A stretch of DNA of 64,000 nt from Patescibacteria group bacterium. GTDB lineage: Bacteria > Patescibacteriota > Patescibacteriia > UBA9934. Shown here one piece after another: positions 1,331 to 59,853 of this stretch; positions within the stretch are counted from its first letter, which is position 1; every line of letters starts with the position of its first letter. The notes under the pieces were generated by a model. The model made no database searches, was not told where the DNA came from, and worked only from the letters and a program-made list of their open reading frames with translations. Made by a program: the position numbers and the translations under genes. The stretch covers positions 108,537-172,536 of the forward strand of contig JBAZXR010000001.1 in NCBI GenBank assembly GCA_041659765.1, written 5' to 3'.

Positions 1331-1412
1331 GAAAACAAAAGACCACATATCGCTCGAAAATGGAGTCGGATTACCTCCTAACATTTTCTCGCGACATGTG
1401 GCTTTTGTTTTT
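1331..1412. repeat. Conserved-loop hairpin element, copy 1. An imperfect ~30-bp stem flanks the core TGGAGTCGGATTACCTCCTAACA (1361..1383), followed by a T-run
   Basis: Inverted repeat gaaaacaaaagaccacatatcgctcgaaaa / ttttctcgcgacatgtggcttttgtttt. It sits between convergent aspS and the 1464..1883 minus-strand gene. The same 21-23 nt core recurs at 14861, 14951(rc), 43636(rc), 46550(rc) and 59801. Confidence 0.85.
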
Positions 1413-7353: not shown

Positions 7354-7380
7354 AGTTGTAAAGTTATAAAGTTGTAAAGA

Positions 7381-7406
7381 AAGAGGCTAATATTGGCCTC
7401 TTTTTT
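7381..7406 (+). terminator. Rho-independent terminator of parB (gaggc taatattg gcctc + T6)
   Basis: Stem-loop followed by a T-run 30 nt after the parB stop. Confidence 0.6.
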
Positions 7407-7417: not shown

Positions 7418-7446
7418 TTGACAAAAGCCCATTTTTCTGCTATAAT
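7418..7446 (+). promoter_or_regulatory. Near-consensus sigma70-type promoter P1 (TTGACA - 17 nt - TATAAT) with a conserved spacer AAAGCCCATTTTTCTGC
   Basis: Exact -35 and -10 hexamers at 17-nt spacing. The spacer is shared with promoters at 7850, 50995, 52460 and 54315. Confidence 0.7.
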
Positions 7447-7490: not shown

Positions 7491-7724
7491 ATGTTTCATA
7501 ACGTTGTTGAAGTGATGCCGCTCGCCCTCGGGCTTACCGTACTGCTCAGCGCCTCAATGACGACGATCTGTACTCTGTCGCCGCTTGCGACGGGTCGAAC
7601 GTGGGGATCGGCGATGAAGGAGATCGGGTGGCTGCTTCCGGGGTCCCATATTCACTTCTGCTACATGTTCGCAATCCTGATCGTGCCTACCGTACTCGGC
7701 GTCATCGTCGGATCCACTCGATAA
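7491..7724 (+). CDS. Small hydrophobic protein (2 TM), function unknown; higher-GC cassette gene
   Basis: 77 aa with its own promoter (P1), an SD GGGAGAAG and a terminator. It has a GC3-rich codon pattern unlike its neighbours. Confidence 0.5.
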   Translation: MFHNVVEVMPLALGLTVLLSASMTTICTLSPLATGRTWGSAMKEIGWLLPGSHIHFCYMFAILIVPTVLGVIVGSTR

Positions 7725-7776
7725 CCGCATCACTTGCAACTCTTTACGAAGAGCCGCAAGGGAGGTGCGGTTTTTC
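7724..7776 (+). terminator. Compound stem-loop followed by a T-run (aaccgca ... tgcggttttt)
   Basis: 7-bp outer stem with an internal hairpin and a T5 run directly after the stop of 7491..7724. Confidence 0.45.
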
Positions 7777-7849
7777 TATTAGCCTCGATACTTTTTCACC
7801 TTTTCAATCTTTTTAACTTTTTTATCTAGTATTAGCTTAATTTTCGTAT

Positions 7850-7878
7850 TATTCCATTGACAAAAGGCCATTTTTCTG
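7850..7878 (+). promoter_or_regulatory. Promoter P2 (TTGACA - AAAGGCCATTTTTCTGC - TATACT)
   Basis: Near-identical copy of P1 including the spacer. Confidence 0.7.
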
Positions 7879-7930
7879 CTATACTAGAAGGGTTTTCTGA
7901 TAGCAAATTTCACATCCTTTTGGAGGCATC

Positions 7931-8329
7931 ATGAAGAACTGCATTTGGTGTGGCGGGAGTCTCGTACCTGTGGACCTGCTCATCAACCAGCCGGAGAACC
8001 GTCGCCACTACTCGAACGCTGAGCTCATCGGATTCACTGATTCGAATGGGTTCCGTTGTGAGAACAGCGAGACATGCGGTGCGTTCTACTGTACGTCGCC
8101 GGGCGGTACCATTGAGGTCCTCGTGGGCAAGGCACGCTACGAACCGCTCAAGGACGGTGACTCGGACTACATCTGGGAGATCGTGGACTCGTGGACCATG
8201 TTCATTGACACCGAAGCCGGAAAGCGGGTCCTCGAAGACGTCCAAATCGAACGGGATTTCAAGCGGTACGGCACGATGGTTGATGACTGCTGGGACTTTC
8301 AAGATCTCGACGACTACGATCCTCTGTAG
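7931..8329 (+). CDS. Cysteine-rich (CxxC ... C ... C) acidic small protein, zinc-ribbon-like N-terminus, function unknown
   Basis: 132 aa (MKNCIWCGG..., FRCENSETCGAFYC) with an acidic C-terminus. It has its own promoter (P2), an SD GGAGG and a higher-GC codon pattern. Confidence 0.5.
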   Translation: MKNCIWCGGSLVPVDLLINQPENRRHYSNAELIGFTDSNGFRCENSETCGAFYCTSPGGTIEVLVGKARYEPLKDGDSDYIWEIVDSWTMFIDTEAGKRVLEDVQIERDFKRYGTMVDDCWDFQDLDDYDPL

Positions 8330-8338: not shown

Positions 8339-8388
8339 ACCGCACCCGAAGAGCCTCACCGGCCTTCGCGGTGCGGTTCTTCTTTTTA
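8339..8388. terminator. Bidirectional terminator between the cassette gene and the RSH gene (accgcacc ... ggtgcggt + T-rich)
   Basis: 8-bp stem with a large loop and a T-rich tail, between convergent stops. Confidence 0.45.
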
Positions 8389-8389
8389 T

Positions 8390-9868
8390 TTAACCCCTAT
8401 ACTTTTTAATAAGACTCGAAATGATGCCCGTCTTGGAGTCCTTGAGGGCGTCTTTTATTTTGTCGCGGGCGTGGCGGGTTTTTACAAATTTCAACCAATC
8501 CTCGTTCGGAAATTTTCGATTCTTATCCGTGATGATTTCGCAGAGGTCGCCGGATTTGAGGGGAGTTGAGAGCGATGCGATTTCGCCGTTGATGCGAGCC
8601 TGAACCGCTTTGTTGCCGATTTCGGAGTGTACCGAGTAGGCGAGGTCGACCGGTGTCGATTCCTCAGGAAGATCGAGCACGTCACCACGGGGAGTAAAGA
8701 CGAAAATGCGATCACGGAACATGTCGAGCTTGAGCTCGTTCAAGTGCTTCATGAAATCGCTCGCAGAAAGTTCTTTTTGAATAACGGCCAGCTCTTCCAT
8801 CCAGCGGACTTGGCGGGCTTTTTGATCGTCGCCGGACTTGTACTTCCAGTGTGCGGCCACACCGTATTCGTTTTCTTCGTGCATCTGGCGGGTGCGAATC
8901 TGAAACTCAAGGATCGAGCCCTCGTTGTCGAATACCGTGGTGTGCAACGACTGATAGCCGTTTGGCTTAGGTTGGGCGATGTAATCCTTAATGCGTCCAG
9001 GCAGCGGCGTGTACATGCCGTGAAGAATGCCGAGCACGGCGTAACATTCCGGAATGTCCTTCACGATTACTCGTAAAGCCACGATGTCATAGACTTTACC
9101 AATGTCCTGTTTGTAACGGTCCAGCTTACGGTGCAGCGAGTACGCGTGTTTGACGCGGCCATGGACGTCAGCACCCGTGATTCCATGTTTTTTGAGCTCT
9201 ACGTCAACATCGTGCAACGCGCGATCTAGCGCCGGTCCGAATTTTTTTACCCGCTCTTCCAGAAGATGCTGCGTCCAGCTGTACTCTTTTGGCTCTAGAT
9301 ATTTAAAAGCGTAGTCCTCAAATTCTCCGCGGTATTCACCCATGCCAAGGCGGTTAGCAATAGGCGCGTAGATTTCTAGAACTTCTTTGGCTATACGCTG
9401 ACGCTTGGCTTCTGGTAGGGCGTAAAGCGTTTCCAGGTTATGCAAGCGGTCCGCAAACTTGATAAAGATTACGCGGACGTCTTCCGCCATAGCCACGAAC
9501 ATTTTTCGGAGGTTTTCCGCGTAACGTTCCTCGCCTCTATATTTTACTTTTCCGAGTTTCGTAATGGCGCCCACCATGCTCCGGATGTCTGCGCCGAATT
9601 CCACTTCAATGTCGTCCAGCGTTTTTTCTGTGTCTTCCGGAACGTCGTGCAAGAGACCTGCGGCAATGACTTCGCTTGGCAGTTTCAGGTTTGCGAGTTT
9701 TGTGCCGACGTTTGCACAGTGCGCAAAGTATGGTTCGCCAGTGTGACGAGCCTGTCCCGTATGGGCCATCTTGGCAAAATCAAACGCGCGTTCAACTAAC
9801 CGGACATCCTCTTCGGAGTACCGGTCATCAAGCGCTGCACGTAAAGTTGAAAATTCTAGTTCAGGCAT
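8390..9868 (-). CDS. rel: RelA/SpoT-homologue (RSH) (p)ppGpp synthetase/hydrolase, short form (HD + synthetase domains only)
   Basis: HD motif (LLHDVPEDT) and a synthetase region (RVKHAYSLHRKL, YQSLHTTV). At 492 aa it lacks the TGS/ACT C-terminal half of long RSH enzymes. Confidence 0.8.
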   Translation of the reverse strand: MPELEFSTLRAALDDRYSEEDVRLVERAFDFAKMAHTGQARHTGEPYFAHCANVGTKLANLKLPSEVIAAGLLHDVPEDTEKTLDDIEVEFGADIRSMVGAITKLGKVKYRGEERYAENLRKMFVAMAEDVRVIFIKFADRLHNLETLYALPEAKRQRIAKEVLEIYAPIANRLGMGEYRGEFEDYAFKYLEPKEYSWTQHLLEERVKKFGPALDRALHDVDVELKKHGITGADVHGRVKHAYSLHRKLDRYKQDIGKVYDIVALRVIVKDIPECYAVLGILHGMYTPLPGRIKDYIAQPKPNGYQSLHTTVFDNEGSILEFQIRTRQMHEENEYGVAAHWKYKSGDDQKARQVRWMEELAVIQKELSASDFMKHLNELKLDMFRDRIFVFTPRGDVLDLPEESTPVDLAYSVHSEIGNKAVQARINGEIASLSTPLKSGDLCEIITDKNRKFPNEDWLKFVKTRHARDKIKDALKDSKTGIISSLIKKYRG

Positions 9869-14836: not shown

Positions 14837-14910
14837 CGGTGCACCCGTTTCCGTAAAAATTGGAGTCGGATTACCTCCTAACAATTTTTCCGGAAACGGG
14901 TGCACCGCCG
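14834..14910. repeat. Conserved-loop hairpin element, copy 2 (perfect 20-bp stem cggcggtgcacccgtttccg; core 14861..14883)
   Basis: Perfect inverted repeat around TGGAGTCGGATTACCTCCTAACA. It lies in the intergenic region between topA and dprA. Confidence 0.85.
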
Positions 14911-14929: not shown

Positions 14930-14992
14930 GGGTGATATCCAAAATAAAATGTTAGGAGGTAACCCGACTCCATTTTATTTTGGATATCACCC
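14930..14992. repeat. Conserved-loop hairpin element, copy 3, core in opposite orientation (GTTAGGAGGTAACCCGACTCC, one substitution)
   Basis: Perfect 21-bp stem gggtgatatccaaaataaaat / attttattttggatatcaccc, immediately downstream of the dprA stop. Confidence 0.85.
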
Positions 14993-23719: not shown

Positions 23720-23746
23720 TTCGTGGTAAAATGTGTGGGAGTTATG

Positions 23747-25471
23747 CTAAGCCGTTGGGCTCAGAATACGTTTGCAGTAATCCTTGTTATGGCAGGGGGC
23801 TTTTTATTTTCTGCGCCACAGGTTTTCGCTCAAGCTGATCAAACGGCTCAGGTGGCTGCTACGGCCGGGTTTGGGACAGCTGATCTACCGACTATTATTG
23901 GCCAGATCATCAGTGTTTTTCTGGGACTACTTGGCGTAGTTTTTCTGGTCCTGACTATTTACGCCGGCACCATGTGGATGACGGCCGCCGGTGATCCTAA
24001 GAAAGTTGAGAAGGCTAAGAATATTTTGATTCAGGCGGCCGTTGGGTTATTAATTACGATCAGTGCTTACGGAATCACCACCTTTATAGTCAATGCGATT
24101 ACGGGCGGAACTGGCGGCGGTGGGGGCGGGACAGGCGGTGGAAGTAATGGCGGAGTCTCGGTCGAGAGCCTGTCTGGTGCTTTGGGCGCCGGACCAATTC
24201 GCGACCATTACCCAACCAGAAATCAGACTGATGTGGCCCGGAACGCTAAAATAATGATTACGTTTAAGGAGGCCATTGACCCGGCCTCGGTGACGGTTAA
24301 TTCCGTGAAGATTTTCCCTGCCTCCACGGGTGTTACTGGTGCGCTCACGGACACGGTTATTAACTTTACAGACGATCACAAGACTTTTGTCTTTAGGCCG
24401 GCCGCCTATTTGGGCTCGCCGACCGCTAAGGTCCAGTACACCGTCCAATTAACTACTGACATTAAAAATGCCGGTGGTGCCAAGCTGTTCTCCGGCTCAT
24501 ACAGCAGTGGGTATAAGTGGTCATTTGAAACTGGCACGGTGCTTGATCTGACGCCGCCGACAATTGTGTCCGTTACTCCTGCTAACTCTGGCGCCTATGC
24601 TCGGAACATCGTAGTGCAGGCTACTTTTTCCGAACCGGTTGACCCAACTTCTGCTTCGGGCGTCCGAACATCTTCCGGAGGTTTCTCGAACATTGGGATT
24701 ACAAGTAATGCGACTGTGCAGGTGCCTGGCGAATATCAGATTTCCAATGGCTATACTTCTGTAACCTTCATCTCGGCTGAGCCTTGTGGCACTAACTCTT
24801 GCGGAGAAAAGATTGTCTGCTTGCCGGCTAGCAGCAGTTTGAATGTCACCGTTAAGGGTGCAAGTACTACGGCTAATCCTCCGCAGGCAGATACCTTTCC
24901 GTATGACGGTGTGGTAGACATGGCCGGTAATTCTTTTGATGGCAACCACGACGGCACGGCTGGAGACTTTTTTGGCTGGAGTTTTACGACCACCGGGGAT
25001 ATCGCGCTCGCGGGGCCAAAGATTGTGTCTGTTTCGCCGAATATTTCCGAAGAAGATGTGCCGCTTGATCAGCCGGTCACGATTACGTTTGGCGATGTCC
25101 TGATGACCTCTAGCGTTTCTCAAGACACAGTCCAGTTATCTAATAAAGAACAGGTGTCTGGCATTTCTCATGAAATGTGGTTTTCGCCGAGCACCTCCTA
25201 TTTGACGAGCGATGATCAGGTGGTGACTTCGGCTGCTCAGATTCCGGCCAAGACGGTGGTTGAAGTGACTCACGGAACGTTCTTGCAGTCGGTGGACGGC
25301 AAGTCATATTTGTATGGCTCGACAGTCACGAGTGGTTTGTTGAACCAGTATCAAAATTGTTATGTGCCCGGAGCGGGACCTGATGCGGTTGGCGGATTGT
25401 GCGGTGTGTCGGCCGCAGAGCCGTACTGCTGCAACGGTATCCCATCTTCCTCGGCTTGCATCCTCTTCTAA
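23747..25471 (+). CDS. Secreted surface protein with a TrbC/VirB2-like two-helix N-terminal anchor, Gly-rich linker and Ig-like (Big) domains
   Basis: Signal peptide, then two hydrophobic helices separated by GDPKKVEKAKN (VirB2/TrbC pilin-like), a G-rich stretch and beta-rich repeats. A TGnTAAAAT -10 precedes it and its stop abuts the giant gene. The track start at 23723 is possible. Confidence 0.65.
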   Translation, partial: LSRWAQNTFAVILVMAGGFLFSAPQVFAQADQTAQVAATAGFGTADLPTIIGQIISVFLGLLGVVFLVLTIYAGTMWMTAAGDPKKVEKAKNILIQAAVGLLITISAYGITTFIVNAITGGTGGGGGGTGGGSNGGVSVESLSGALGAGPIRDHYPTRNQTDVARNAKIMITFKEAIDPASVTVNSVKIFPASTGVTGALTDTVINFTDDHKTFVFRPAAYLGSPTAKVQYTVQLTTDIKNAGGAKLFSGSYSSGYKWSFETGTVLDLTPPTIVSVTPANSGAYARNIVVQATFSEPVDPTSASGVRTSSGGFSNIGITSNATVQVPGEYQISNGYTSVTFISAEPCGTNSCGEKIVCLPASSSLNVTVKGASTTANPPQADTFPYDGVVDMAGNSFDGNHDGTAGDFFGWSFTTTGDIALAGPKIVSVSPNISEEDVPLDQPVTITFGDVLMTSSVSQDTVQLSNKEQVSGISHEMWFSPSTSYLTSDDQVVTSAAQIPAKTVVEVTHGTFLQSVDGKSYLYGSTVTSGLLNQYQNCYVPGAGPDAVGGLCGVSAAEPYCCNGIPSSSACILF

Positions 25472-25477
25472 AACATT

Positions 25478-28400
25478 GTGAACATAAACCGCTTAAAACA
25501 CTTGGTTGTCGGGTTACTCGTCGCTACGAGCTCGGCTTTGCCGTTGGCTTTGCCAATGATCGCTTCCGCGCAGACGGACACGGTGACGAGCGGGCTTGAG
25601 ACCGTGGGTACAGCTACTGGTTTAGGAAATGAGGATCCGCGGATTATAGTGGCGAGAATTATTAGAGTAGTGATTTCTTCGCTCGGCGTAATCGCCGTGG
25701 TTATTGTTCTTTACGGCGGTTTCGTCTGGATGACCTCGGCTGGCAATGAAGAGAAGGTGAGTAAAGCTAAGAAGATTTTGTTGAGCGGCGGTATCGGTCT
25801 AATGATTATTCTGATGTCATGGTCCATCACCACCTTCATTATTAGTTCACTTTTGAGTGCAACTGGCGGTGGTGGTGGCGGTTCTGGCGGCGCAGGTGAC
25901 GGTGTAGGCGGAACTAGTCTGGGTGGCGGTTCTGGCAGTGGCTTTGTAGTAACCGGTATTGTTCCTAAGGGTGAGGTGACGATTAGAAATGTGCAGGTTC
26001 GTGTAACATTCTCGAAGAATGTTGATCCTGCAAGCATTGCTAACGCCTTTACGGTTAAAAATACCCTGACGGGTGCAGTCATTGCTGGTACGCCATCTGT
26101 TTCCGGAAACACCATTACTTTCAAACCTAGCACGCCTTGTTCGGACGCGGCACCAGCTCCGCTTTGTTTTGACGCGAGCACTCAGTTTACGGTCACCATG
26201 ACTACGGCCATTAAGAGTACCTCGGCGGTTGCTTTGACGTGTCCGACTAGCCGTCCCTGTGCTGGCAGCTTCACGACTGGAACTATAGTCGACGAGGTTC
26301 CGCCAACAGCTTTGATTACTGACCCTGACGCTGGACAGCGCGTGCCAGCCAATAGCTTTCAGAACGTTCAGGTGGTTGGTACTGATGATGTTGGTGTCGC
26401 TAGTGCTACCTTCTTGGCCGGTACTGTCAGTTTTGACGAAGTTCCGGCTACCGGAGCGGATCTCACGAGCGTAACAATTAGCGCTGATTGGGATACGAGC
26501 AACGAGGATGCTGGAAACTCGGTAAAATTGTCTTCCACTATTACTGACCTGGCTGGTAACACGGCTGAAGACTCAGTTGGGGTGCTCTTAGCACCAGCTT
26601 CATGCCAAAATAACGTCTTAGATTCCGGCAGTGGAGAAACGGGGATTGATTGTGGCGGTGATCCGACTAGCGCGAACTATTGTGGCGCGTGTGACGGCTC
26701 GGCTTGTACTTCTTCTACTGATTGTCAGTCCGGTTCTTGTGTGAGCGGTGTTTGTCGGGCTACGACCGTTATTAGAGCGGTTTCGCCATTGTCGGGTGCG
26801 CCTGGTACTTACGTCACAATTTCTGGTAATTCTTTTGGGGCAACGCCGGGCAAAGTTTTGTTTGTTGGTCCGGGCGCGCCAGTTGAGGCGGTTCTAGCTC
26901 CGTGTGCTGATGGTTGGACAGACCGCCAGGTAGTAGTCATGGTGCCGCCAGGTCCGGCTGGAACTGGTCCGATTACTATTGTGCGAGCAAATGCGGTAGA
27001 TGATTTTGATAAGGATTTAACTAATGATAATCGGGGTCCGCTCATTGCTAACTTCGTCGTGAACACGGTGGCGCATCCAAATCTGTGTGGTCTTTCGGCT
27101 ACCAGTGCCAAAGCTGGCGATTCGCTCACGCTTACCGGATCCGGTTTCGGCGCTAGTCGAGGGACTTCGGTAGTGGCCTTTGGTAGTAATCGTCCCGCCT
27201 CCACCTATTCGTCATGGTCTGATTCTTCCGCTCAGGTAGTGGTGCCGGTCGTAGCCTCTCGTGATGGCTCGTACGCTGTACATGTGGTTTCCGACGCCGG
27301 CATTTCGTCGAATAGCATTAGCTTACGCTTTACCTCGGCCGCTTCTTCTGGCGGATCTACAACCTCAGGTGGGACAACTACGCCGGGAGGCGTGACTACA
27401 CCAGGCGGGACTACTACTCCCGGTGGAACCACAACTCCAGGCGGAACCACTACGCCTGGCGGTTCAGCCGCCTCTGCACTTGTTCCGTCGCTCGTTTCGA
27501 TTGATCCTGGTCAGGGTGGAATAGGGCGTTACGTTAGTTTGACGGGCACAAATTTTGGTTCCGCTAAGGGGATTGTCAAGTTCACTAATACCGCGACCGG
27601 CGATACTGCGGTGGCTAGCTTGGATGTTTCTGCAGCCTGCGGTGCGGAAAACCCATGGGGTAACACGCTGATCAGATTTGTCGTTCCCGGCACCTATACA
27701 AATGGCACGGCCATCGCGGTCGCCGCACATACTGTGTCTATCACCTCAGCCAGTGGCCAGATTTCTAATACTGTTCCATTTACTATAATCGCTGATGATA
27801 CAAGACCGAATGTGTGCGGAATCGTGCCCGCTACTGGCCAGGCCGGGGATACGATAAAAATTGTTGGCGATCGGTTTGGCTCAACCAATGGCGCGGTTAC
27901 TTTTTCGTCGAGTGTGACTTCAGTCATCACCTCTTGGAGTAATACCGAAGTCAAAGTGACCGTTCCGGCCAGTGCTCAGAGCGGCAGTGTCACCCTAGCC
28001 AACGCCGCCGGAGTAAAAGGTAACAATGTTTATTTCAGCGTGGCTTCGCCTACTTCATCGGCTGGCGCGGTGGGCGGCGGCTATGCTTGGAGTTTTTCTT
28101 CCGGTTCCATTCCTAAAGTTCCAAGTTTGGTAACTGAGTGTTCGGCTTCGGTCGTTTCTGCTGTGCCGAATAACCGGTTTACGGACTCGGTTTGTACCAA
28201 TGCTGTGGTGTATGCCGAATTCACTCAGCCGATGAACCAGGCCACAGTGCAGGGTGCGGTGAAGGTTGACCGCTGTACCGGCGAAGGCTCTAACCCGTGT
28301 TCTTCGGTGATGGCGGTGACAGGTCAGACGCTCACTACTTTAAAATCTTTTACTTTTACGCCAAGCACGCCGCTGGCTATAAGTTCAACTTACCGCGTGA

Positions 28401-31400
28401 CCGTGGCCGCTACGGCTGAATCCGCCGATGGGGCAACTTTGGCTAGAGACGCTGAGTGGACTTTTGTGACAGCATCAACTAATACAGCTTGTTTAGTTGA
28501 TAGTGTCAGAGTGTCACCGGCCAAGGCGACTATTAACGTAAAGAACGGGACGGAAAGCTTCTCGGCCCTGCCGACGGCTGGTTGTGTGGTGCTTGACCCA
28601 GCTGGGGTTGAGTGGGATTGGGCACTGAATCCTAGTTTTGCGGCTCGTAATACAACGGCCAATCCGTCCTGTGTGGGCGGGTCTACGGCTTGTTTGACTG
28701 CTGAGGCTTTGGCCGAGGGTGTGACACCGGTCACGGCCACGGTGAGCAATACAGCGACAAACAGTTCAGCTAGTTTGACAATCGAGTTTACAGATCCGTA
28801 CGTCACCGGCGTTTGGCCTGATTGTGACGCCGCCTGCATGAACGCACAGATTGGGGCGAGCTTTAACATTCCAATGAATAAGCAGAGTCTTGAGGCCTCG
28901 GGGAACGTTCGGCTGTTTGAGTGTACAAACGAACTTTGCTCCGCTACTTCAGAGATTACGAGCCCGGACGCTAGATGTATGACGGTGACCGGTCAGTCTC
29001 CTGAGTGTACGGGCTTCGCCTTGAAGACCGTTACGCTCAACCCCGGTAAGTTTTATAAAGCACGGATTAGCGGCTCGGTTAGAAGCGTAAGCGGGGTGCC
29101 GTTGACTAGAACTAATGACGGAGGCGATTATTCTTGGGTGTTCCGCGCTCGGGAAGACGCTAGTGCTTGCGTGGTCAGCCGAGTTTCTATTTCTCCGGCC
29201 ACTGCTCTAGCCAAGGCGGTTGGTGACAAAACAACCTTTACGAGTACGGCCTTTGGCGAAGCTGATAGCTGTTCACAGTCTGGTCAGCGACTAACCGGCT
29301 TCTCTTACTCATGGACCTGGGCCAACCCGATTATTGATGAGGATCTGGATAGCAATCCGGCTACTAAAGTAGCAGAGTGGCTAGGTTCTTCACTTCGAGA
29401 CACTTCTCCTTCAGCTATTCCATCTGCCTGCTCCGCATCATGTACTCCTGGTGGCAGCGTGCCTTATGAAGCGATTTGCGGTGACGGGGTGCTTGATCTT
29501 ACAGGCGGCGAGGAATGTGAAGATGGCAACGTGGCCAATGGCGACGGTTGTTCAGCTTCTTGTTTGCATGAGGGGACTAGCGCGCCAACTTGTGGCAACG
29601 GCCTTATTGATACCGCCGAGGATTGCGATGACCGTAATCTGATTGATGGTGACGGTTGTTCAAATAGGTGTCAGTCCGAAGGTTCGCGCTCAGTTGGCGC
29701 AACCTGTGGAAATAATGATATCGCTCGTAACGCCACCACAAAAGCTGGCGAAGAATGTGATGATAGTAACGCTAAAAATGGTGATGGCTGTTCTTCCAAC
29801 TGTACCAATGAGGGGACACCGTCATTAGCGTCTATCGGCGGGGCGGTTTGCGGTGACCGCGTAGTCAACATACCGGGCGAGGGTTGCGACGATGGAAACA
29901 TTATTAACGGCGATGGTTGTTCGTCGGTTTGTTTGCATGAAGGCTCGCTTACGACTTGTGGAGTTGGCGGGGTTGACGCTGGCGAGGATTGTGATGATGG
30001 AAACGGGTTGAACGGTGACGGCTGTTCCTCCAGATGTTTGTTTGAGGGCTCTTCGGTGGCTTACTCGCTGCCATCTTTCTGTGGCGATGGCGTGGTTGGA
30101 ACGGGCGAATATCCGGCCTGCGAAGCTGGTGTAACAGGTGACGGTCGAATTGATCCTTTGCAAACCGCCATCATCAGTAGTGATGCAGCTTTTGAGGTAG
30201 ACTTGGCGACCAAGCGGGCGCACGCTACGGTTGAGGTTAAAGAAAACTCCTCTGGTCTATCTACTACCGCTGATCTTTCTTTGTCGTGCGTAGCCACCTC
30301 TGATGCCAGCTGTTCGGACCCTGCTCACAACGGCGTCGGTTCAGCTAGCTGCTGCATGCCACGGCCAACGGTGACGCTGATCCCAACCTCTGCTTCTACA
30401 ACCTGCCGTAATCCGGCCTTGTACGGTATCTTTTCTCAGAAGATGGATCTAGAATCATTTACTACTACCAACACTGACAGAGCGCTGACGGTTGAGACTG
30501 ACCACTTGTACCTGCAACTGGACTTGCCGGCTACCACTGCTCTTCCTGGAATGCCAGGTTCTGAGATTAGGTGTCCAAGTGGGTATCGCGTAGCTTTTGG
30601 TCATGATCCAAAGGGCTTCTTAGCTCGGGCAAAAAATACCATCGTTCGCTTCTTCGTTGGTGATTCAGCAGTCGCCGCGGAAGGTAAATGCTTGCTGCCG
30701 GTTACTGGCTACGAGCAGGTTGAACAGGACGATGGAACGTACAAAATTTATCTAAAATACGCTAAAGCGCTTGAGCCAAATGCGTCTTATACCCTTGTGG
30801 TTGATGGTGATCCAAATGTTCAAGATGGAGTAATAGTTGGAGTTACTTCAGTTTCAGGTGTTGGTTTGAACGGCACGGCCTCGTCTACATTTAGAACTGG
30901 CCCGAACCTATGTTCGTTAGATGAGGTCAAGGTGACCGACAACTACCGTGCGTCGCCCTACCTCTTTACGCGGGGTGATGAGGTGCATGCGTTTACGGCT
31001 GCAGGTATTTCTCATACGAATGGCCTAATTCAGGAAATCCAACCGATTCTCGGAGTCTACGATTGGGATTTTGATAAATGGAAGATTGCTGATGAGACCC
31101 TGTTTGGAGTGTCAGCTATCGGACCCAATATTCCTCATGACACTGTTGATATTAAATCCTTAGCGAAAAACGGCTCGACGAGTCTTTCAGCGCAGGCCAC
31201 TATTGGAGCAGACACGTTTGGCGGCACGACAGGCAAGAAAGTGATCGGTTCGACTGGGATAACGGCATTTTTATGTGAGAATCCTTGGCCGCCTCTACCT
31301 AAGTTCCCGTGGTCTGATGACCCGGCGGGCGAAGCTAACGGACTCGCATCGCAGGGGACTGAGGGCTGGATGAACATTTCTAGTTATTACTGTCGCGATC

Positions 31401-34400: not shown

Positions 34401-35020
34401 ACAAAACGGGACCAACTGGTTGTACATCTAGTCCTTGTCAGTCAACAAATATCCATGGGACGAGAACTTATGAAGGTTTGGTTGAAGCTCGTCAGATGTT
34501 TAAGAAGATTAATGATTTGTCGACCACGGATAAGACTAATACCCGGTACATCGGGATCCTGCTATCTGATGGCGAGTATACGAACACAGACCCGCTCATT
34601 GAAGCAGCTGCATGGAAGGATAAATACGAGCTTTATACGGCCACAATCGGCAATGATTCGGCGTTCATTGCGCAGATGAACAGGTGGTCGACGAATAGTT
34701 GGGATGGAACTACGGCCAACACGAGTTCTGACACGTACAATGGCGTTGATTATTCCTTTACGGCATCAACGGATACGCAATTAACGGGCATTTATAGCCA
34801 GATAGTTAATACGATCCAAAATATTAGCGTTAAACTGGTTGTTGATAGTGGAGCTGCCTCGACTAGCGTGAATACTGGAAACGGAATCTCGCTCGTTTTG
34901 CCGCAAGGCTTTGCCTGCGACAAGCTTCACTCACAGAACGTGCCTATTCAGGTGACCTTTGCAGGCAAGGGGCAAATGACTATTAGTGACGTGCGTGTAA
35001 ATTATTGTGCGGCTCCATAG
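25478..35020 (+). CDS. Giant (3180 aa) VirB2/TrbC-anchored surface protein with Ig-like/IPT domains, Myxococcus-type cysteine-rich repeats (DUF4215-like) and a vWA domain with MIDAS
   Basis: GTG start 7 nt after the upstream stop. Its N-terminus is paralogous to the 23747 gene. It has IPT/Big-like segments, a (TTPGG)n linker, about six CG(D/N)GxxDxxEECDDGNxxxGDGCSxxC repeats (aa ~1330-1530) plus a second array (aa ~2340-2660), and DxSxS (ITDLSQTM) of a vWA/MIDAS at aa ~2830. Confidence 0.75.
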
Positions 35021-43609: not shown

Positions 43610-43682
43610 GCAGATGAATATCCTGTTGAGAAAATGTTAGGAGGTAATCCGACTCCATTTTCGAGACAGGAGATTCATCTGC
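43610..43682. repeat. Conserved-loop hairpin element, copy 4 (core GTTAGGAGGTAATCCGACTCC at 43636..43656)
   Basis: Stem gcagatgaatatcctg / acaggagattcatctgc, between tRNA-Asp and the convergent 43736..45175 gene. Confidence 0.85.
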
Positions 43683-43735
43683 TTAAAAAAAGAAGTCGGA
43701 GATCCGCGTGGGGATCTCCGACCGTTACGTTCTGG

Positions 43736-45175
43736 TCACTTGCGGGTGCAGGCCGTTTGGCCTTGAGTAGTGGGGCAGTACACGGTGGCGCCGAGGATGT
43801 TGATTTCCACGAGCTCGCCGCTTTTCTGCTTGCGCATCTCGTCCACGATCGCTTCGGGGGCGAGTTTGGCGCCATGCAGCGTGATCAGACCTTTGCCTGT
43901 GGCGCTGGCCGCTACTCCCTGGCCGCAGATGGTGATTTCCTCCTGCCCGTTGGTGGTGACATCCACGTTTTTGAGCGTGGCTACCACACAGTTCTGACCG
44001 TCGCCGAGCGCATAGCTTGAGATCACCGTGAAGGTGGGTTTAGCTGCGGTCGTTTCAGGCGGCAGTGTCGGGAGGCTGATCTTCGGCGGTTCGGCCGGGG
44101 CCACGGGTGCGGTAGGCACTTGCTCCACGTTGGTCGGCTGAGCTGTGGTGGCTTGAACCTCCGTGGCCGGTTTCTCGGTTAGGCTGATGCCGTAACCAAT
44201 CAACCCGAGCGCTCCGATGACGGCTATCACCCCCAGGCTGATGCCGAGGATTGCGCCGAGGTTACTTACTTCCTTCGACTCCGGGCGGATCAGACGAGTC
44301 GCTGGAGCGACCGGCGTTTCAAGGTCGCTCGCCAGGTCAATCAGGGTAATGTTCTGATCATCCTGTTGCTCTTTGAACCGGTTACGGGTGGTGGGGGAGA
44401 CTTCCTTGTCGTCCAGACCCGGTTCATCTTTGGGGAACTGCCGGTGCGGTTTGACCGGCGCAATGGCCGGGGCAGCCGTCGCTGCTTCCGCCTTGAGCGT
44501 TTCCACCATCTTCGCCGTTTGTTCTTCCAGTTCGGCCTTGGCTTGATCCACCGCCGATCCCAGGGTAGGGGCGGGCATTTGTACGGCCCTTGGCTGGGCT
44601 GGTGCCGGGGTCGGCTCCATCATGGGCGGGGCAATGTCCGGCGGTACCGTGTCCGTTCTGGCTGCCGAGGATTGCACAGACCTGAGCCTCTCCATAAAAT
44701 CCACGAGGTTGTCTCGGGGCTCAATTTTTTTACTGACTGGCTCAGTGGTCGAGATAGGTCCGACCCGTTCCACCATCTCAGCTGGTGAGCGTGCAGCACC
44801 ACCAGAAGGTGGCGACATGACAGCGTCATCCCAGACGACATCTGATGAACCAATGTACTCGGTCGTTACGGGATGTTGACCCGTGTACGGACTTGGACCA
44901 GGGTCGTCATCGTCAGGAATCCTGGTCGGTTTCCGTTCGATGATCTGTTCCGCCTTTTTCTTGAAGTGCTCAAGGCGCTCCAGCTCTTTGGGGCTAAGCT
45001 TGCTCACGAAGATGATGGCCCCCATGAGAATAGTGGCATTCGGGGCGGGCGTACCTTCTTCCCCCGCCTTCCCGGTTACCACGAGCTCCTCAATGAATTC
45101 AAGACAAGCTTCTCGGTCATCGGGGTTGAACCCGTCATCGCTGATGATCGTTTGACCATTGGAATTGCTGGACAT
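43736..45175 (-). CDS. Hypothetical bitopic membrane protein: ~300 aa cytoplasmic N-terminal region with Pro-rich linker, one TM helix, ~150 aa extracellular Cys-containing C-terminal domain
   Basis: 479 aa with a single strong hydrophobic helix (LGAILGISLGVIAVIGALGLIGYGI). Its own promoter is at 45246..45275. Confidence 0.55.
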   Translation of the reverse strand: MSSNSNGQTIISDDGFNPDDREACLEFIEELVVTGKAGEEGTPAPNATILMGAIIFVSKLSPKELERLEHFKKKAEQIIERKPTRIPDDDDPGPSPYTGQHPVTTEYIGSSDVVWDDAVMSPPSGGAARSPAEMVERVGPISTTEPVSKKIEPRDNLVDFMERLRSVQSSAARTDTVPPDIAPPMMEPTPAPAQPRAVQMPAPTLGSAVDQAKAELEEQTAKMVETLKAEAATAAPAIAPVKPHRQFPKDEPGLDDKEVSPTTRNRFKEQQDDQNITLIDLASDLETPVAPATRLIRPESKEVSNLGAILGISLGVIAVIGALGLIGYGISLTEKPATEVQATTAQPTNVEQVPTAPVAPAEPPKISLPTLPPETTAAKPTFTVISSYALGDGQNCVVATLKNVDVTTNGQEEITICGQGVAASATGKGLITLHGAKLAPEAIVDEMRKQKSGELVEINILGATVYCPTTQGQTACTRK

Positions 45176-45245: not shown

Positions 45246-45275
45246 ATATTAGCAACAAAAAAGTGATTTTGTCAA
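45246..45275 (-). promoter_or_regulatory. Promoter for the 45175 gene (minus strand: TTGACA - 18 nt - TAATAT), related to the shared promoter consensus
   Basis: Reverse complement reads ATTGACAAAATCACTTTTTTGTTGCTAATAT. Confidence 0.55.
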
Positions 45276-46530: not shown

Positions 46531-46589
46531 GGATATGTTCGAAAAATTTGTTAGGAGGTAATCCGACTCCAAATTTTTTGGACATATCC
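46531..46589. repeat. Conserved-loop hairpin element, copy 5 (core 46550..46570, rc orientation)
   Basis: Stem ggatatgttcgaaaaatttg / caaattttttggacatatcc, located between ssrA and infC. Confidence 0.85.
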
Positions 46590-46632: not shown

Positions 46633-47027
46633 TGGTGGACCTGGCGGGAGTTGAACCCGCGTCCGAAAGTGATTAGAGAATGACTTGTTACATGCTTTGC
46701 CCGGCTGGGTAATGAAATCGCTCGAGCCGAGCAAAAGACGATTTCATATGTCTCTGAACCGTAATCGCAGTGAAGGCAGAGACGCCCTATACTGCACAGT
46801 CAGTCTTTATAGCACCCGGACTCTTCCCGATTGACATGGAAGGCGGATGTGGCAAGGGCGCTTAGGCCGTGGCCATGGAAAGTGATGGGGCAAATGCGAA
46901 ACGCATTGCTTCCTTCACCTTAGAGAATACATTGGCGTGTATGTCGTTGTACCAGGTGATACGGAGTCCGGTACCTCTCCTGCATGATCATTTCCCCTCA
47001 CAGCTTTCGTCGAAGCCTGGCAGGCCC
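46633..47027 (-). ncRNA. ssrA: tmRNA (SsrA), ~395 nt
   Basis: Reverse complement begins GGGCCUGCCAGGCUUCGACG and ends GGACGCGGGUUCAACUCCCGCCAGGUCCACCA. The acceptor stem GGGCCUG/CAGGUCC includes the G3-U70 wobble, with T-arm GCGGG-UUCAACU-CCCGC. An internal ORF ends ...SLSMATA-UAA. It lies directly downstream of smpB. Confidence 0.85.
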
Positions 47028-50994: not shown

Positions 50995-51023
50995 TTGACA
51001 AAAGCCTGTTTTTTTGCTATTAT
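50995..51023 (+). promoter_or_regulatory. Promoter P3 (TTGACA - AAAGCCTGTTTTTTTGC - TATTAT)
   Basis: Copy of the shared promoter. It is preceded by CGGACA-type direct repeats (50967..50988). Confidence 0.65.
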
Positions 51024-51220
51024 AGGTTGTTCTTTCAAACGAAAGAATTGGCTAACAAAACCTCCAGAATCGTCGCTCCGACGGCTTGGTATCCTTTGGC
51101 GTTCCTCCTCCAAACGCTAAGGTTGATGCCAGGTCATTGGAGCGCCGATTGCAGGCGCCGGTAAACTGACGTGTTGTCAGAACCGTCTTGCAGCGGACTC
51201 AAAAATCCCTTGGAGGGTAC

Positions 51221-52401: not shown

Positions 52402-52438
52402 GGCTCTGGTGAAGGATCGAATCCTTGTCACCAGAGCC
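52402..52438 (+). terminator. Long GC-rich hairpin (ggctctggtga...tcaccagagcc) after island gene 1
   Basis: ~16-bp stem. No T-run follows, which is typical of high-GC donor-type terminators. Confidence 0.4.
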
Positions 52439-52459: not shown

Positions 52460-52488
52460 TTGACAAAAGTCTAAAAATCTGCTATAGT
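52460..52488 (+). promoter_or_regulatory. Promoter P4 (TTGACA - AAAGTCTAAAAATCTGC - TATAGT)
   Basis: Shared promoter consensus inside the high-GC island, followed by a ~180-nt structured 5' UTR. Confidence 0.65.
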
Positions 52489-52671: not shown

Positions 52672-54225
52672 ATGTCACGCTTTGCAACGATTGCTGTTCT
52701 GTTCTTGGGTGCGTGCGGTGGGCAGTTCGCCCCCGACGAAATCGAGACCGGCGGCAACGACACCGGTTCCAACGCTGACGCCGACACCGACGCCGACTCG
52801 GACTCCGATACGGACTCCGATACGGACGCCGACGCCGACGTCGACACGGGCACCAACGAGGTCCCGTTCTACGACATCGACGGCGACGGGCGCGAGGACA
52901 AGCCGGCCACGGACGGCCTCATCCCGGTTGGGATGAACGTCTCGATCGCCGAGTTCAACACGCCGCCCGCGTTCCTGGACGAGTTGTACTTCGTTCCGTA
53001 CGGCGAGAACTGCAGCACCAGCTACAAGCTGTGGCGCGTCACGACCGTCGACGGCGCGGGCTACTTCGCCTGGACGCTCCGGAGCAATACCGGAACGATC
53101 GCAGGGAACGTCCGCAAGGTCACCTGGAACGAAGACGGCAGCTGCTACCTGGACGACGGATCGCTCGACTTCTGGGGCAACCTGGAAGCGGACAACATGG
53201 TCGGTGATCCGGCCATCGTTCCGAGCCTCGTGGACACCTACGAGGACGAGCAGACCCACGAGGTCAAGCACCGCATGATGGTGTGCCTCGAAGTCCGCGG
53301 CATGAGCACGATCCCGGGCAACCCGCTCGCCTGCCAGCAGATGCAGCAGGACGCTGGGCCGGTCGTGGATCCGGTCGAGACCATCTGGTACCGCGACTTC
53401 GACAACGACGGGTACGGCGATGCGGGAACCACCAAGTGGTCCGTGGCGCAGCCGGCAGAATACATCGGAGTCCCCGGCGATTGCTGGGATGACAACGACG
53501 AGGTTCACCCCGGTGCGACCGAAGTGGTCGATGGCCTCGACAACGACTGCGACGTGGTCAAGGACTGCGCCGACGCGAACGTGTCGAAGGTCTCGGAGAT
53601 CACGGGCGACGGCTACGACAACGACTGCAACACGTCGACGTCGGACACCGTTCCCTCGGCTACCCCGACCGACTGGTACCTGGACTCGGACGGCGACGGC
53701 TTCGGCAGCGCAGTCTCGAAGCTCTCGGCCGTGGCGCAGCCTGCGGGCTACGTCAGCAACGGCACCGACTGCGACGATGCGAAGAGGGACCGCTTCCCCG
53801 GCGCGACCGAGATCGCGGGCGACGGCATCGACCAGGACTGCAACGGCAGCGACCTGGCGACGGTACCTTCGGGTGACGGCCGCACGCTCGGCACGTGGAC
53901 CTTCACGTTGGATTCCAACGTGTCGGCGAGCGTGACCCAGTTCGAGATCCGGAACACGACCGCGAGCACCGTGGTCAGCCAGCTCAGCCGGAGCGGCAAC
54001 GTCTTCACCGTGCAGATCATGGGGAAGACGGGGGACGATCTGTCCGCGCAGTGCTGGTACACGAAGCCGGACGGGGTCACCGAGTGGTGCGCAAGCAACA
54101 ACCACTCGGGCAAGATCCTCTCGGCCACCGGTCCCGGCGGCGCGTACACGGTCGGTCAGCTCACGGGCGACTTCAAGTACGCCTCCGTGGACTCCGGTAA
54201 GCGGTACAACGGCAAGGTCAAGTAA
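52672..54225 (+). CDS. Lipoprotein with poly-Asp/Thr/Ser acidic linker and MopE-like putative metal-binding repeats (high-GC island gene 2)
   Basis: Lipobox LFLGAC, a (DxDx)n acidic tract, and repeats DNDGYGDAG...PGDCWDDNDEVHPGATEVVDGLDNDCD and DSDGDGFG...GTDCDDAKRDRFPGATEIAGDGIDQDCNG. Confidence 0.65.
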   Translation: MSRFATIAVLFLGACGGQFAPDEIETGGNDTGSNADADTDADSDSDTDSDTDADADVDTGTNEVPFYDIDGDGREDKPATDGLIPVGMNVSIAEFNTPPAFLDELYFVPYGENCSTSYKLWRVTTVDGAGYFAWTLRSNTGTIAGNVRKVTWNEDGSCYLDDGSLDFWGNLEADNMVGDPAIVPSLVDTYEDEQTHEVKHRMMVCLEVRGMSTIPGNPLACQQMQQDAGPVVDPVETIWYRDFDNDGYGDAGTTKWSVAQPAEYIGVPGDCWDDNDEVHPGATEVVDGLDNDCDVVKDCADANVSKVSEITGDGYDNDCNTSTSDTVPSATPTDWYLDSDGDGFGSAVSKLSAVAQPAGYVSNGTDCDDAKRDRFPGATEIAGDGIDQDCNGSDLATVPSGDGRTLGTWTFTLDSNVSASVTQFEIRNTTASTVVSQLSRSGNVFTVQIMGKTGDDLSAQCWYTKPDGVTEWCASNNHSGKILSATGPGGAYTVGQLTGDFKYASVDSGKRYNGKVK

Positions 54226-54250: not shown

Positions 54251-54300
54251 AAGGGCGGCTATCGCGAGACATCATCGCGAAGCCGCCCTTCTTCTATTTT
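54251..54300 (+). terminator. Terminator after island gene 2 (aagggcggc ... gccgccctt + T-rich)
   Basis: 9-bp stem enclosing an inner hairpin, followed by a T-rich stretch. Confidence 0.5.
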
Positions 54301-54314: not shown

Positions 54315-54343
54315 TTGACGAAAGCCATTTTTTAGACTACAGT
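54315..54343 (+). promoter_or_regulatory. Promoter P5 (TTGACG - AAAGCCATTTTTTAGAC - TACAGT)
   Basis: A diverged copy of the shared promoter. Confidence 0.55.
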
Positions 54344-54384: not shown

Positions 54385-54921
54385 ATGAATCGCATTCTGT
54401 TCTTGGCCGTTCTGGCCTTCACCGCGCTCACTGGTTGCCAGATGCATCCGGATGCGCCCAATGGGAACCAGTCCGGCGGCGGCAACAACGATCAAGGCGA
54501 CGACATCATCCAGCAGGAGCCTGCGCTCGTCGAGATCATCGCCACGCAGGAGGACATCGACGGCACGAACGTCAGCCTCTACGCGAAGGGCGAGGGCAAC
54601 GACAACGTCAACTGGATCGCGAACCCGAACGCCGTCCCGATCGACACGGACTCGGACGGCCGCGGCGAGATCGGCAACTGGACCCAGTTCGAGGTGGCCT
54701 GCGGGGAGGAAATCACCCTCCAGTGCAACTTCCGCGACCGACAGGGTCGCGAGCGTTGGTGCTTCGAGAACGACCCGGACGACGGCGGGACCAACCAGTT
54801 CCTCGCGGACGACGTTTGGGTGGACGGCGTGGTGTCCAGGCTCCGGCCCGTCTTCAACGAGTGGACCGGCGCCAACGACTCCCACGGCTACAACGCCGTC
54901 ATCACCCGGAACTGCCGGTAG
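54385..54921 (+). CDS. Small Cys-containing lipoprotein (high-GC island gene 3)
   Basis: Lipobox LTGC, a Gly/Asn-rich linker and SD AAGGAGG. Confidence 0.6.
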   Translation: MNRILFLAVLAFTALTGCQMHPDAPNGNQSGGGNNDQGDDIIQQEPALVEIIATQEDIDGTNVSLYAKGEGNDNVNWIANPNAVPIDTDSDGRGEIGNWTQFEVACGEEITLQCNFRDRQGRERWCFENDPDDGGTNQFLADDVWVDGVVSRLRPVFNEWTGANDSHGYNAVITRNCR

Positions 54922-55090
54922 ATCGTCACGTTCGGCTCGTCCCCTGGGGCGCTGTGCAGCAATGCATGGCGCTCTTTTTTATTGGGCGTGGCGAGCCACG
55001 CCCTTACAGCGAACTTGCTATGTACAGCTCGGCTTGCCCGTTTAGCTCGTTCTGCTACCCTCAACAGAGATATCTTAGAGGAGGCTTTTT

Positions 55091-58662: not shown

Positions 58663-58691
58663 TTGGCTAGGTTGACAAGATTTTTGTAATT
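58663..58691 (+). promoter_or_regulatory. Promoter P7 upstream of rplJ (TTGACA - 17 nt - TAATCT)
   Basis: Consensus -35 with an appropriately spaced -10-like hexamer. Confidence 0.5.
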
Positions 58692-59771: not shown

Positions 59772-59853
59772 GCAAAACAAAATAGCACTCTCTCTCGGAA
59801 ATGGAGTCGGATTACCTCCTAACATTTCCTCGAAAGAGTGCTTTTTGTTTTGC
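59772..59853. repeat. Conserved-loop hairpin element, copy 6 (core 59802..59823)
   Basis: Stem agcaaaacaaaatagcactc / gagtgctttttgttttgct. It exactly fills the gap between the rplL stop and the stop of the convergent 59854 gene. Confidence 0.85.

Follow-up and report, generated by a model that had tools for sequence, protein, structure and literature searches.

A lineage-wide extended promoter motif is enriched upstream of genes with GC-rich third codon positions in a Patescibacteria group bacterium and its relatives

We analyzed a 64,000-nucleotide stretch of DNA from a Patescibacteria group bacterium (contig JBAZXR010000001.1, positions 108,537 to 172,536; "the window" denotes this whole stretch), in which five similar promoter-like sites and a sixth, looser one each precede a single gene. 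The underlying motif, TTGACA-AAAG-N4-T5(or A5)-N-TGC-TATAnT, is not private to this genome. It recurs across a lineage of the candidate phyla radiation (CPR), and it is strongly enriched on a class of genes with a high GC content at third codon positions (GC3), yet it is not exclusive to that class. On balance, we favor the reading of a strong promoter module, typical of the lineage, at the head of native genes that are insulated, rapidly evolving and probably highly expressed and whose silent sites would be kept GC-rich by selection. To our knowledge, almost nothing is known of transcription control in CPR/Patescibacteria, and a literature search found no description of a CPR promoter motif or of a GC3-rich gene class.

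Direct reading of the window sequence confirmed all five sites proposed in a first-pass annotation of this DNA, as well as a looser relative on the minus strand. The second copy had been placed at 7850-7878 and lies 7 nucleotides (nt) further on. The sites are as follows.

7418..7446, plus strand: promoter copy 1, TTGACAAAAGCCCATTTTTCTGCTATAAT; TTGACA-17-TATAAT with a TG extended -10, 12/12 consensus
7857..7885, plus strand: promoter copy 2, TTGACAAAAGGCCATTTTTCTGCTATACT
50995..51023, plus strand: promoter copy 3, TTGACAAAAGCCTGTTTTTTTGCTATTAT
52460..52488, plus strand: promoter copy 4, TTGACAAAAGTCTAAAAATCTGCTATAGT; A5 replaces T5 in the spacer
54315..54343, plus strand: promoter copy 5 (looser), TTGACGAAAGCCATTTTTTAGACTACAGT; TTGACG-17-TACAGT, no TG
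45246..45275, minus strand: promoter copy 6 (looser), TTGACAAAATCACTTTTTTGTTGCTAATAT; TTGACA-18-TAATAT, TG present, directly after the rplT terminator hairpin

The arrangement expected of a primary-sigma promoter, with a -35 close to TTGACA and a -10 close to TATAAT separated by 17 +/- 1 nt, is found in copies 1-6, and the TG at -15/-14 that defines an extended -10 is found in copies 1-4 and 6 and is missing from copy 5. Against the sigma70 consensus, copy 1 scores 12/12, copies 2-4 score 11/12 each and copy 5 scores 9/12, all with a 17-nt spacer, while copy 6 scores 10/12 with an 18-nt spacer. The earlier description of consensus hexamers around a conserved spacer holds in that the sites are near-consensus sigma70-type and the spacer is non-random. 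These sites are the best sigma70-consensus matches of the 64-kb window, which has no other match of 11/12 or 12/12. Copies 1-3 fit a 29-nt consensus with at most one mismatch (three matches versus 0.00 in shuffles), and the relaxed pattern TTGACNAAAG-N13-TANNNT returned 6 matches, all five copies included, where 0.23 were expected.

If the 30-mer stood before most housekeeping operons, it would simply be the generic promoter of the organism. This is not what the window contains: the promoters of tRNA-Asp, tRNA-Val, tmRNA/smpB, infC-rpmI-rplT and rplJL are simpler, take the form TTGACA/TCGACA-N16-18-TAnnnT, and are without the full spacer. The tRNA-Asp promoter is followed by the same GTT as the motif copies. 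Two further relatives were seen in passing. The rplJL promoter, at about 58672-58700 (hand-derived coordinates), has a similar TTGACA...TTTTT...TAATCT form, and a weaker relative at 1945-1917 on the minus strand, TTGACC-ATTGTCCAATTTTTGGG-TAATCT, lies upstream of a minus-strand open reading frame (ORF; 1883-1464) that encodes a 139-aa EamA-like membrane protein and has a raised GC3 of 0.76.

In order to place the motif beyond this genome, we scanned one genome per species (1.2e12 bases) with the pattern TTGACAAAAG-N4-TTTTT-N-TGCTAT, which fixes 21 bases. The species-representative genomes contained at least 120 motif loci, compared with approximately 0.3 expected by chance. Among the matches listed, 58 carry CPR names (Uhrbacteria, Magasanikbacteria, Patescibacteria group, Parcubacteria, Saccharibacteria and others), 46 are labeled "uncultured Gammaproteobacteria", and 14 belong to other phyla, mostly Firmicutes metagenome-assembled genomes (MAGs), several with the motif upstream of tRNA genes. 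Uhrbacteria, Magasanikbacteria and related groups account for most of the labeled matches. The gammaproteobacterial label is not trustworthy, because three assemblies that bear it (those of loci L084, L062/L132 and L078; handles of this form denote matched loci) have genes or gene order in common with the window. The title appears to be a placeholder or an error. All 46 of these loci (within L003-L121) come from one TPA/"binchicken" MAG series and are of CPR type, some on contigs or chromosomes of about 0.7-1.0 Mb. Only 8 of 2.9 million viral contigs carried the motif, which is thus not a phage feature.

Positions left free by the search also show promoter-like regularities. Across 117 aligned copies, the fourth base of the -10 is A in 83 and the sixth is T in 113, the upstream 20 nt are A/T-rich, and the bases 6-8 nt past the -10 are G, T and T in 64, 69 and 76 copies, a triplet that likely marks the start region. 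Judged from sequence, the motif would be used by a primary sigma factor of the sigma70/sigmaA type. In copies from other genomes, TTAGC(C) stands exactly 25 nt before the -35 in 15 of 127 cases versus 0.09 expected, and smaller TTAGC peaks flank this one by a helical turn, at -35 and -14 relative to the -35 hexamer. The window has two such elements.

7393..7398, plus strand: upstream element of cassette 1, TTGGCC, a variant of TTAGCC, 25 nt before the -35
7832..7837, plus strand: upstream element of cassette 2, TTAGCT, 25 nt before the -35

Other TTGACA-N17-TAYNNT sites in the fetched loci show weaker forms of the same tendencies (AAA past the -35, a T-rich stretch, and T-G-C before the -10), and in independent promoters of the lineage the T and G of the extended -10 occur in 38 and 37 of 64. 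Between orthologous promoters, only 4-6 free spacer bases vary, while AAAG and the A/T tract are kept; the ortholog of copy 3 in L122 differs solely in the variable part of the spacer, and the A5 variant of copy 4 is retained in three species. Such a pattern points to a need for DNA shape (an A or T tract) together with an extended -10, and not to recent copying. A MerR-type mechanism acting through the spacer, suggested earlier, is unlikely because the spacer is 17 nt long, where such promoters have 19-20 nt and a dyad operator; no dyad symmetry was found within the spacers of the window copies.

The spacer T5 could in principle be the U-tract of a terminator fused to the promoter, with the TT...AA of TTGACAAAAG and its flanks forming a hairpin with the -35 in its loop, so that one unit would stop just where its successor starts. 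Copy 5 looks like this: its -35 sits inside a short hairpin, GGCTT-GACGA-AAGCC, followed by T6. At least five extra complementary pairs flank the -35 in 14 of 117 copies, compared with 3.5 in partner shuffles, and the stems are varied (L069, L051, L034). However, this enrichment amounts to only about 12% of copies, window copies 1-4 have no such hairpin, A5 variants cannot be U-tracts, and separate strong terminators already precede most copies. We therefore rejected the hairpin as a general explanation and consider a fused terminator-promoter highly improbable.

We next turn to the genes that the motif precedes across genomes. The first ORF past the motif averages 7 GC points above the rest of its locus (66 of 109 lie above +5 and 2 below -5), and GC3 exceeds locus GC by more than 0.2 in 40 of 92 downstream ORFs, about 40% being strongly GC-rich. 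In these 40 GC3-rich ORFs, GC1, GC2 and GC3 average 0.59, 0.44 and 0.81, while the GC of their loci averages 0.49, and the pattern is found even in genomes of 35-38% GC. ORF-based association tests picked antisense frames in GC-rich DNA and understate the link; in the frame-free test used instead, one codon phase exceeded 0.75 GC in 31% of downstream segments versus 7% of controls (p = 3e-10). In a set of 116 independent sites, the more motif-like the spacer, the greater the downstream GC excess tended to be (rho 0.41, p = 4e-6). Few of 87 downstream proteins have a Pfam match; those matched belong to ordinary enzyme families, GT4, SHMT and PPDK among them. Genes after the motif are mostly lineage-restricted, without a Pfam match, and often envelope proteins, and strong hairpins lie 3' of most of 37 GC3-rich ORFs examined. 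At L038 (1579-2856), from a genome with 28% GC, the two genes of a tandem pair of membrane-protein paralogs have identical copies of promoter and untranslated region (UTR) and no GC3 excess, which indicates that the promoter module also duplicates along with its gene.

The same data bear on a further alternative, in which the extended motif (TTAGCC, TTGACAAAAG and the spacer tract) is the site of a dedicated regulator or alternative sigma factor and the genes are regulated together, as the surface or host-interaction genes of an episymbiont might be. It would fit the phasing of TTAGC at -25, -35 and -14, the retention of AAAG and the A/T tract between orthologous promoters whose other spacer bases vary, the housekeeping promoters of the same genome that are without the full motif, and a spacer score that tracks gene class; it would also fit the finding that about 60% of GC3-rich products have N-terminal hydrophobic, lipobox or membrane-spanning features versus 37% of other downstream products. 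The core, however, matches the primary-sigma consensus perfectly, has TG and a spacer of 17 nt, and needs no activator, and T5 and A5 are interchangeable, which suggests DNA shape and not base-specific reading. Only about 20-25% of copies have TTAGCC, the motif also stands before ordinary enzymes and, in Firmicutes MAGs, tRNA genes, and we identified no candidate factor. We regard a dedicated factor as a tentative possibility, one that could add to the promoter-module reading as well as replace it.

Within the window, each copy leads to a Shine-Dalgarno sequence, one ORF and a GC-rich hairpin, so that each is a unit of its own, here called a cassette and numbered as its promoter. The units are autonomous, each with its own terminator, as had been proposed, but the long UTR once ascribed to all of them is found only in cassettes 3 and 4 (about 197 and 183 nt), the other three of the five having 41-45 nt. 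Coding regions are indeed GC-richer than those of the host, although unevenly: the ORFs of cassettes 1-5 have GC contents of 0.56, 0.56, 0.67, 0.65 and 0.64 against about 0.52 in neighboring genes, and GC3 values of 0.69, 0.74, 0.82, 0.90 and 0.91 against 0.45-0.63. Their parts are listed in order of position.

7491..7724, plus strand: cassette 1 ORF, 77 aa, small hydrophobic protein, GC3 0.69
7724..7776, plus strand: cassette 1 terminator hairpin, ACCGCAtC...CGAAGAGCC...GGTGCGG + T5
7931..8329, plus strand: cassette 2 ORF, 132 aa, Cys-rich N-terminal domain, GC3 0.74
8339..8395, plus strand: cassette 2 terminator, CCGCACC-CGAAGAGCC-...-GGTGCGG-TTCTTCTTTTT
43686..43723, minus strand: cassette 6 terminator, 12-bp stem + T-tract
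43736..45175, minus strand: cassette 6 ORF, 479 aa, one internal membrane-spanning segment, GC 0.59, GC3 0.67
51029..51220, plus strand: cassette 3 leader, 5'-terminal hairpin GUUCUUUC-AAAC-GAAAGAAU, then a long conserved hairpin with a UCCUCCUCC loop
51221..52381, plus strand: cassette 3 ORF, 386 aa, ATG after GGAGGG, signal peptide, Pro/Thr/Ala-rich region, GC3 about 0.82
52402..52438, plus strand: cassette 3 hairpin, GGCTCTGGTGAAGGAT...ATCCTTGTCACCAGAGCC
52672..54225, plus strand: cassette 4 ORF, 517-aa lipoprotein with MopE-type Cys-rich repeats, GC3 0.90
54253..54300, plus strand: cassette 4 terminator, GGGCGGC...GCCGCCC + TTCTTCTATTTT
54385..54921, plus strand: cassette 5 ORF, 178-aa lipoprotein, GC3 0.91
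54946..54982, plus strand: cassette 5 terminator, 13-bp stem + T-tract

Searches with the cassette proteins returned little. The products of cassettes 1 and 6 had no Pfam or other family match, none of the six matched in PHROG and PADLOC scans, the cassette 2 protein had 11 matches (the genome's own included) among 1.84 billion representatives, and only 3 of 5.8 billion proteins belong to the cassette 5 family. The Cys-rich N-terminal domain of cassette 2 recurs as a repeated module in two giant proteins, P0126 (3047 aa) and P0134 (2783 aa), with 17 and 7 matched stretches, respectively.

The leader of cassette 3 is predicted to be very stable as RNA (minimum free energy -82.9 kcal/mol, z -6.4), with a hairpin of about 35 bp whose loop, UCCUCCUCC, is anti-Shine-Dalgarno-like. 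It is nearly invariant relative to L122 3995-4190, where silent sites are saturated, the differences being a 2-nt loop indel and compensatory changes, and it may be a cis-regulatory leader. Rfam recognized only tRNAs and the tmRNA in the window, and the cassette leaders were without a match even at E <= 1.

The cassettes had been called compositionally foreign, and a GC and GC3 far above those of their neighbors, with codon usage like that of a generic high-GC genome (AAG 100%, CAG 97%, TAC 100%), would be expected of genes acquired horizontally from GC-rich donors on a portable promoter and still bearing the un-ameliorated donor signature. The architecture also fits the definition of a phage moron, an independent promoter-ORF-terminator unit that lies between genes adjacent in a relative and has a composition unlike its neighbors (PMC3594210). 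Cassettes 1-2 are missing from the parB-relA junction of L084, and the MopE-type repeats of cassette 4 are of a kind frequent in Myxococcota and Bacteroidota. However, only codon position 3 carries the GC excess. The first two positions have native-like GC, so that the atypical composition does not extend over the whole segment as it would in an acquired island, and in 31 GC3-rich cassettes the 5'UTRs have a GC of 0.467, close to the locus GC of 0.479 and far from the GC3 of 0.81.

Orthologs tell the same story. Cassettes 3-5 and their promoters are orthologous across four species (L122, L123 and L132/L133), flanked by the same PDZ protease and lipoprotein-GT4-xseAB genes; orthologous promoters of copy 5 were found in L122, L123 and L132. 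Orthologous cassettes have a GC3 of 0.79-0.94 versus 0.39-0.64 in native genes: the cassette 3 ortholog in L122, at 30% identity, still has 0.79, and the cassette 4 orthologs in L122, L123 and L133 have 0.86-0.94. Neighboring genes share 74-89% protein identity, except one hypothetical lipoprotein at 63-73%, and their four-fold sites are saturated (0.33-0.48 identity), while cassette proteins share only 30-70% between species. The cassettes are therefore old and fast-evolving, with a GC3 that is high in every lineage, and the contexts fetched from L123, L132/L133 and L138 have the same promoter and cassette architecture. No homologues marking a donor lineage, as expected of an acquired island, were found for cassettes 2 and 5, whose families are tiny (11 and 3 members in billions of proteins), nor was any integrase, transposase or phage gene found among about 50 larger ORFs scanned across the window, and the scarcity of the motif in viral contigs points the same way. 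An excess at third positions only, absent from 5'UTRs and kept in orthologs, leaves the label of foreign DNA unsupported, and we consider acquisition from GC-rich donors quite improbable. Recent duplication of the promoter, also proposed earlier, fails on similar grounds, since the same promoters occupy orthologous positions in species with saturated four-fold sites and the motif is lineage-wide.

The window is a bacterial chromosome segment of about 52% GC, as indicated by its tmRNA, parAB and other housekeeping genes; it encodes parA-parB, relA/spoT, topA, dprA, der, hisS, ftsA-ftsZ, pyk, infC-rpmI-rplT, smpB, tmRNA, xseAB, rplJL and five tRNAs. A phage origin of the window was considered and rejected: in a 7-kb megablast tRNA genes were the only matches, and the giant ORF gave no tblastn match. 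An exact look-up of ParB likewise gave no match.

The units also turn over. In L084, whose ParA and RelA share 72% and 67% identity with those of the window, parB abuts relA; in the window, cassettes 1 and 2 lie between them. Insertion between genes that are adjacent in a relative thus applies to cassettes 1-2, whereas cassettes 3-5 are present in all relatives seen. At the left edge of the two-cassette insertion, immediately 3' of the parB stop, is a direct repeat, AGTTGTAAAG-TTATAA-AGTTGTAAAG, at 7354-7379. One terminator family, CCGCACC-CGAAGAGCC-...-GGTGCGG-TTCTTC-T(n), ends cassettes 1 and 2, two tandem cassettes of an Uhrbacteria MAG (L111) that have unrelated ORFs and the same promoter and terminator, one unit in L035, and a unit in L138. 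The last is a homologue of cassette 2 at 50% amino acid identity, with a GC3 of 0.77, in which promoter, TTAGCC element, UTR and terminator are all kept. Units are, then, sometimes gained, lost or duplicated with a different ORF.

Do promoter and terminator form a mobile chassis, with ORFs spreading or swapping by recombination between conserved ends and the spacer conserved through common descent of the copies? The promoter regions of cassettes 1 and 2 are 83% identical over 58 nt, the upstream 31 nt counted in, which is the similarity expected of putative mobile promoters, defined as stretches of 50-100 nt that precede non-homologous genes and are at least 80% identical (Matus-Garcia et al. 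2012, PMC3488235). The single terminator family around unrelated ORFs in the window, in L111 (twice) and in L035, and the tandem arrays of units would fit as well, and DprA in the genome makes natural transformation plausible. The other cassette pairs share only about 42 nt at 69-79%, however, with similarity stopping just past the promoter. The terminators of cassettes 3-5 are unrelated to the cassette 1/2 family and to each other, orthologous cassettes hold their position in four species, and there are no attC-like core sites and no integrase among the window ORFs. A metagenome scan for the cassette 1/2 terminator family gave 4 unrelated matches on GC-rich contigs, none with promoters, and no recombination signature was found. 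We judge a mobile chassis to be rather unlikely. The earlier idea of a portable cassette is borne out in part, by the two units absent from the L084 parB-relA junction and by unrelated ORFs that share promoter and terminator, but not by cassettes 3-5, which are stable in position.

What might keep GC3 high? That the excess is restricted to third positions speaks for selection, whether on codon choice or on some property of the mRNA, and against mutation bias or biased gene conversion. Low-GC and higher-GC hosts have the same codon preferences, which Tyr, Ile, Phe, Asn, Lys and Gln show most strongly. For the first five of these amino acids, a mild shift in the same direction is seen in the ribosomal proteins and IF3 of the window. 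Because the fetched loci yielded too few highly expressed housekeeping genes or pilins, ribosomal protein genes from the window, L105 and L132 served for comparison. In L105, S12, S7 and EF-G have a GC3 of 0.61-0.64 versus 0.44-0.56 in four of five other ORFs, and the cassette there has 0.79.

Several points weigh against the reading of strong promoters on native genes under selection for GC3. About half of the motif-driven genes have no GC3 excess, and some are the ordinary enzymes GT4, SHMT and PPDK. Ribosomal protein genes of the window have ordinary GC3 values (L7/L12 0.56, L10 0.62, L20 0.57, L35 0.62) and are without the full motif, and their Glu codon preference is opposite to that of the cassettes. 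Bacteria that grow slowly and have tiny genomes are not expected to be under strong codon selection. "Strong" and "highly expressed" are our inferences from the consensus match. Because the seed pattern fixed the spacer, conservation of the spacer across genomes is partly a product of search design, a concern that the independent sites only partly remove, and the taxon proportions are rough, resting on the matches listed.

Ordinary GC3 in classic highly expressed genes means that ordinary translational selection is not a ready explanation of values of 0.8-0.9, and it is at best part of the answer. This leaves room for a more speculative proposal, to which we give little credence: the lineage might keep an "expression chassis" (the extended promoter and its factor site, a 5' hairpin, and a Shine-Dalgarno sequence and terminator that are both strong) for its fastest-evolving private genes, whose silent sites would be made GC-rich by a force other than translational selection. 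Possible forces of this kind are resistance of the mRNA to A/U-specific or ribosome-dependent RNases and extreme mRNA longevity; most speculatively, the genes might be tuned to the translation machinery of a GC-rich host cell that receives transcripts or genes.

Returning to the reading we favor, the sites would be copies of an extended housekeeping-sigma (sigma70/sigmaA-type) promoter module of a CPR lineage that includes Uhrbacteria, Magasanikbacteria and relatives. The module would run from an optional phased TTAGCC about 25 nt before the -35 through TTGACA, AAAG, about 4 free bases and the T5/A5 tract to a TGc extended -10, TATAnT and, about 5 nt further on, a G-T-Y start. Its spacer would be conserved as a part of the promoter (extended -10 plus A/T tract), possibly with a bound factor in addition, and not through recent copying. 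It would head insulated monocistronic units with their own Shine-Dalgarno sequence, often a 5' hairpin, and their own strong hairpin terminator, encoding small, fast-evolving, lineage-restricted proteins, many of them predicted lipoproteins, secreted or membrane proteins. GC-richness would be a silent-site property maintained over the long term; its likeliest cause would be selection, in strongly expressed transcripts, for certain codons or for an mRNA property. Over longer times the units would be gained, lost and re-used with different ORFs as chromosomal "morons."

Such a module would provide a usable lineage-wide promoter model, comprising upstream element, -35, spacer tract, extended -10 and start context, for annotation of transcription units and for genetic tools. 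It would also define a new gene class that can be recognized from DNA alone by motif and high GC3, autonomous, rapidly evolving and mostly envelope-directed, whose members are good candidates for host interaction. The class poses a puzzle, a GC3 of 0.8-0.9 in genomes of 35-55% GC whose ribosomal protein genes are without the excess, and a caution, as composition-based detection of horizontal gene transfer would call these genes foreign where UTR and ortholog tests say otherwise.

Other elements of the window were noted alongside. A second repeat family comprises six copies of a near-palindrome of about 32 nt, AAAATGTTAGGAGGTAATCCGACTCCATTTT, at 1353-1387 (minus strand), 14850-14891, 14943-14980, 43628-43665, 46542-46579 and 59791-59832. 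The copies lie at 3' ends of native transcription units and at convergent junctions (after asnS/eamA, dprA, tRNA-Asp, tmRNA and rplL), and their strands read as a long Shine-Dalgarno-like TTAGGAGGTAATCC and an anti-Shine-Dalgarno-like GGATTACCTCCTAA. The family is probably a sequence-conserved bidirectional terminator and possibly a ribosome-binding element. At 23723-35020 on the plus strand, proteins of 582 and 3180 aa each begin with a T4SS-pilin-like domain followed by Ig-like (Big_5, TIG) and DUF4215 Cys-rich repeats, and they look like giant surface or pilus-associated proteins; five 68-nt repeats lie at 29507-30048, and two TSP3-repeat proteins follow the pair. The tmRNA (46633-47027, minus strand) encodes an unusually long tag, ANVFSKVKEAMRFAFAPSLSMATA, which ends in ATA instead of the usual LAA.

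Among known systems, integron cassettes resemble the units in being tandem single-gene units with diverse, mostly unknown ORFs and a structured palindromic 3' element. They differ in that each unit here has its own promoter and the units stand in dispersed groups of 1-3. The RYYYAAC/GTTRRRY cores and promoterless ORF of an attC cassette were not found, AAC/GTT lying at the outer ends of hairpins that differ between cassettes, and for the IntI tyrosine recombinase/attI system, no recombinase domain was found among the approximately 50 larger window ORFs. Phage morons are closer, with their own promoter, ORF and factor-independent terminator, their place between genes adjacent in a relative, and their base composition unlike that of the neighbors. 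In contrast to morons, however, the units reside in a housekeeping chromosomal context (flanked by parAB, relA, infC-rpmI-rplT, a PDZ protease, GT4 and xseAB), with neither PHROG matches nor more than the few viral contigs above to suggest phage or prophage residence; one promoter type serves all units and many species, and the shift in composition is limited to third positions and kept in orthologs. The similarity limit for putative mobile promoters is reached by cassettes 1 and 2, the other pairs falling below it. Most copies share only a functional core of about 29-35 nt, and the 3' terminator can be shared too, so that conservation of the motif is better explained by function than by recent mobilization.

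The nearest relatives are extended -10 (TGn) sigma70/sigmaA promoters. Like the motif, these have TTGACA, a 17-nt spacer, TATAAT, TG one base before the -10, A/T-rich (UP-like) upstream DNA, and a spacer A/T tract just upstream of the TG. Related elements are the "-16 TRTG" region of Gram-positive bacteria, the chlamydial "spacer A/T region," and the zipper-contacted spacer element. The motif differs from these promoters in its fixed AAAG after the -35, its T5/A5 at a fixed place, its C between TG and -10, its phased TTAGCC and its GTY start context, and in being conserved lineage-wide and tied preferentially to one gene class.

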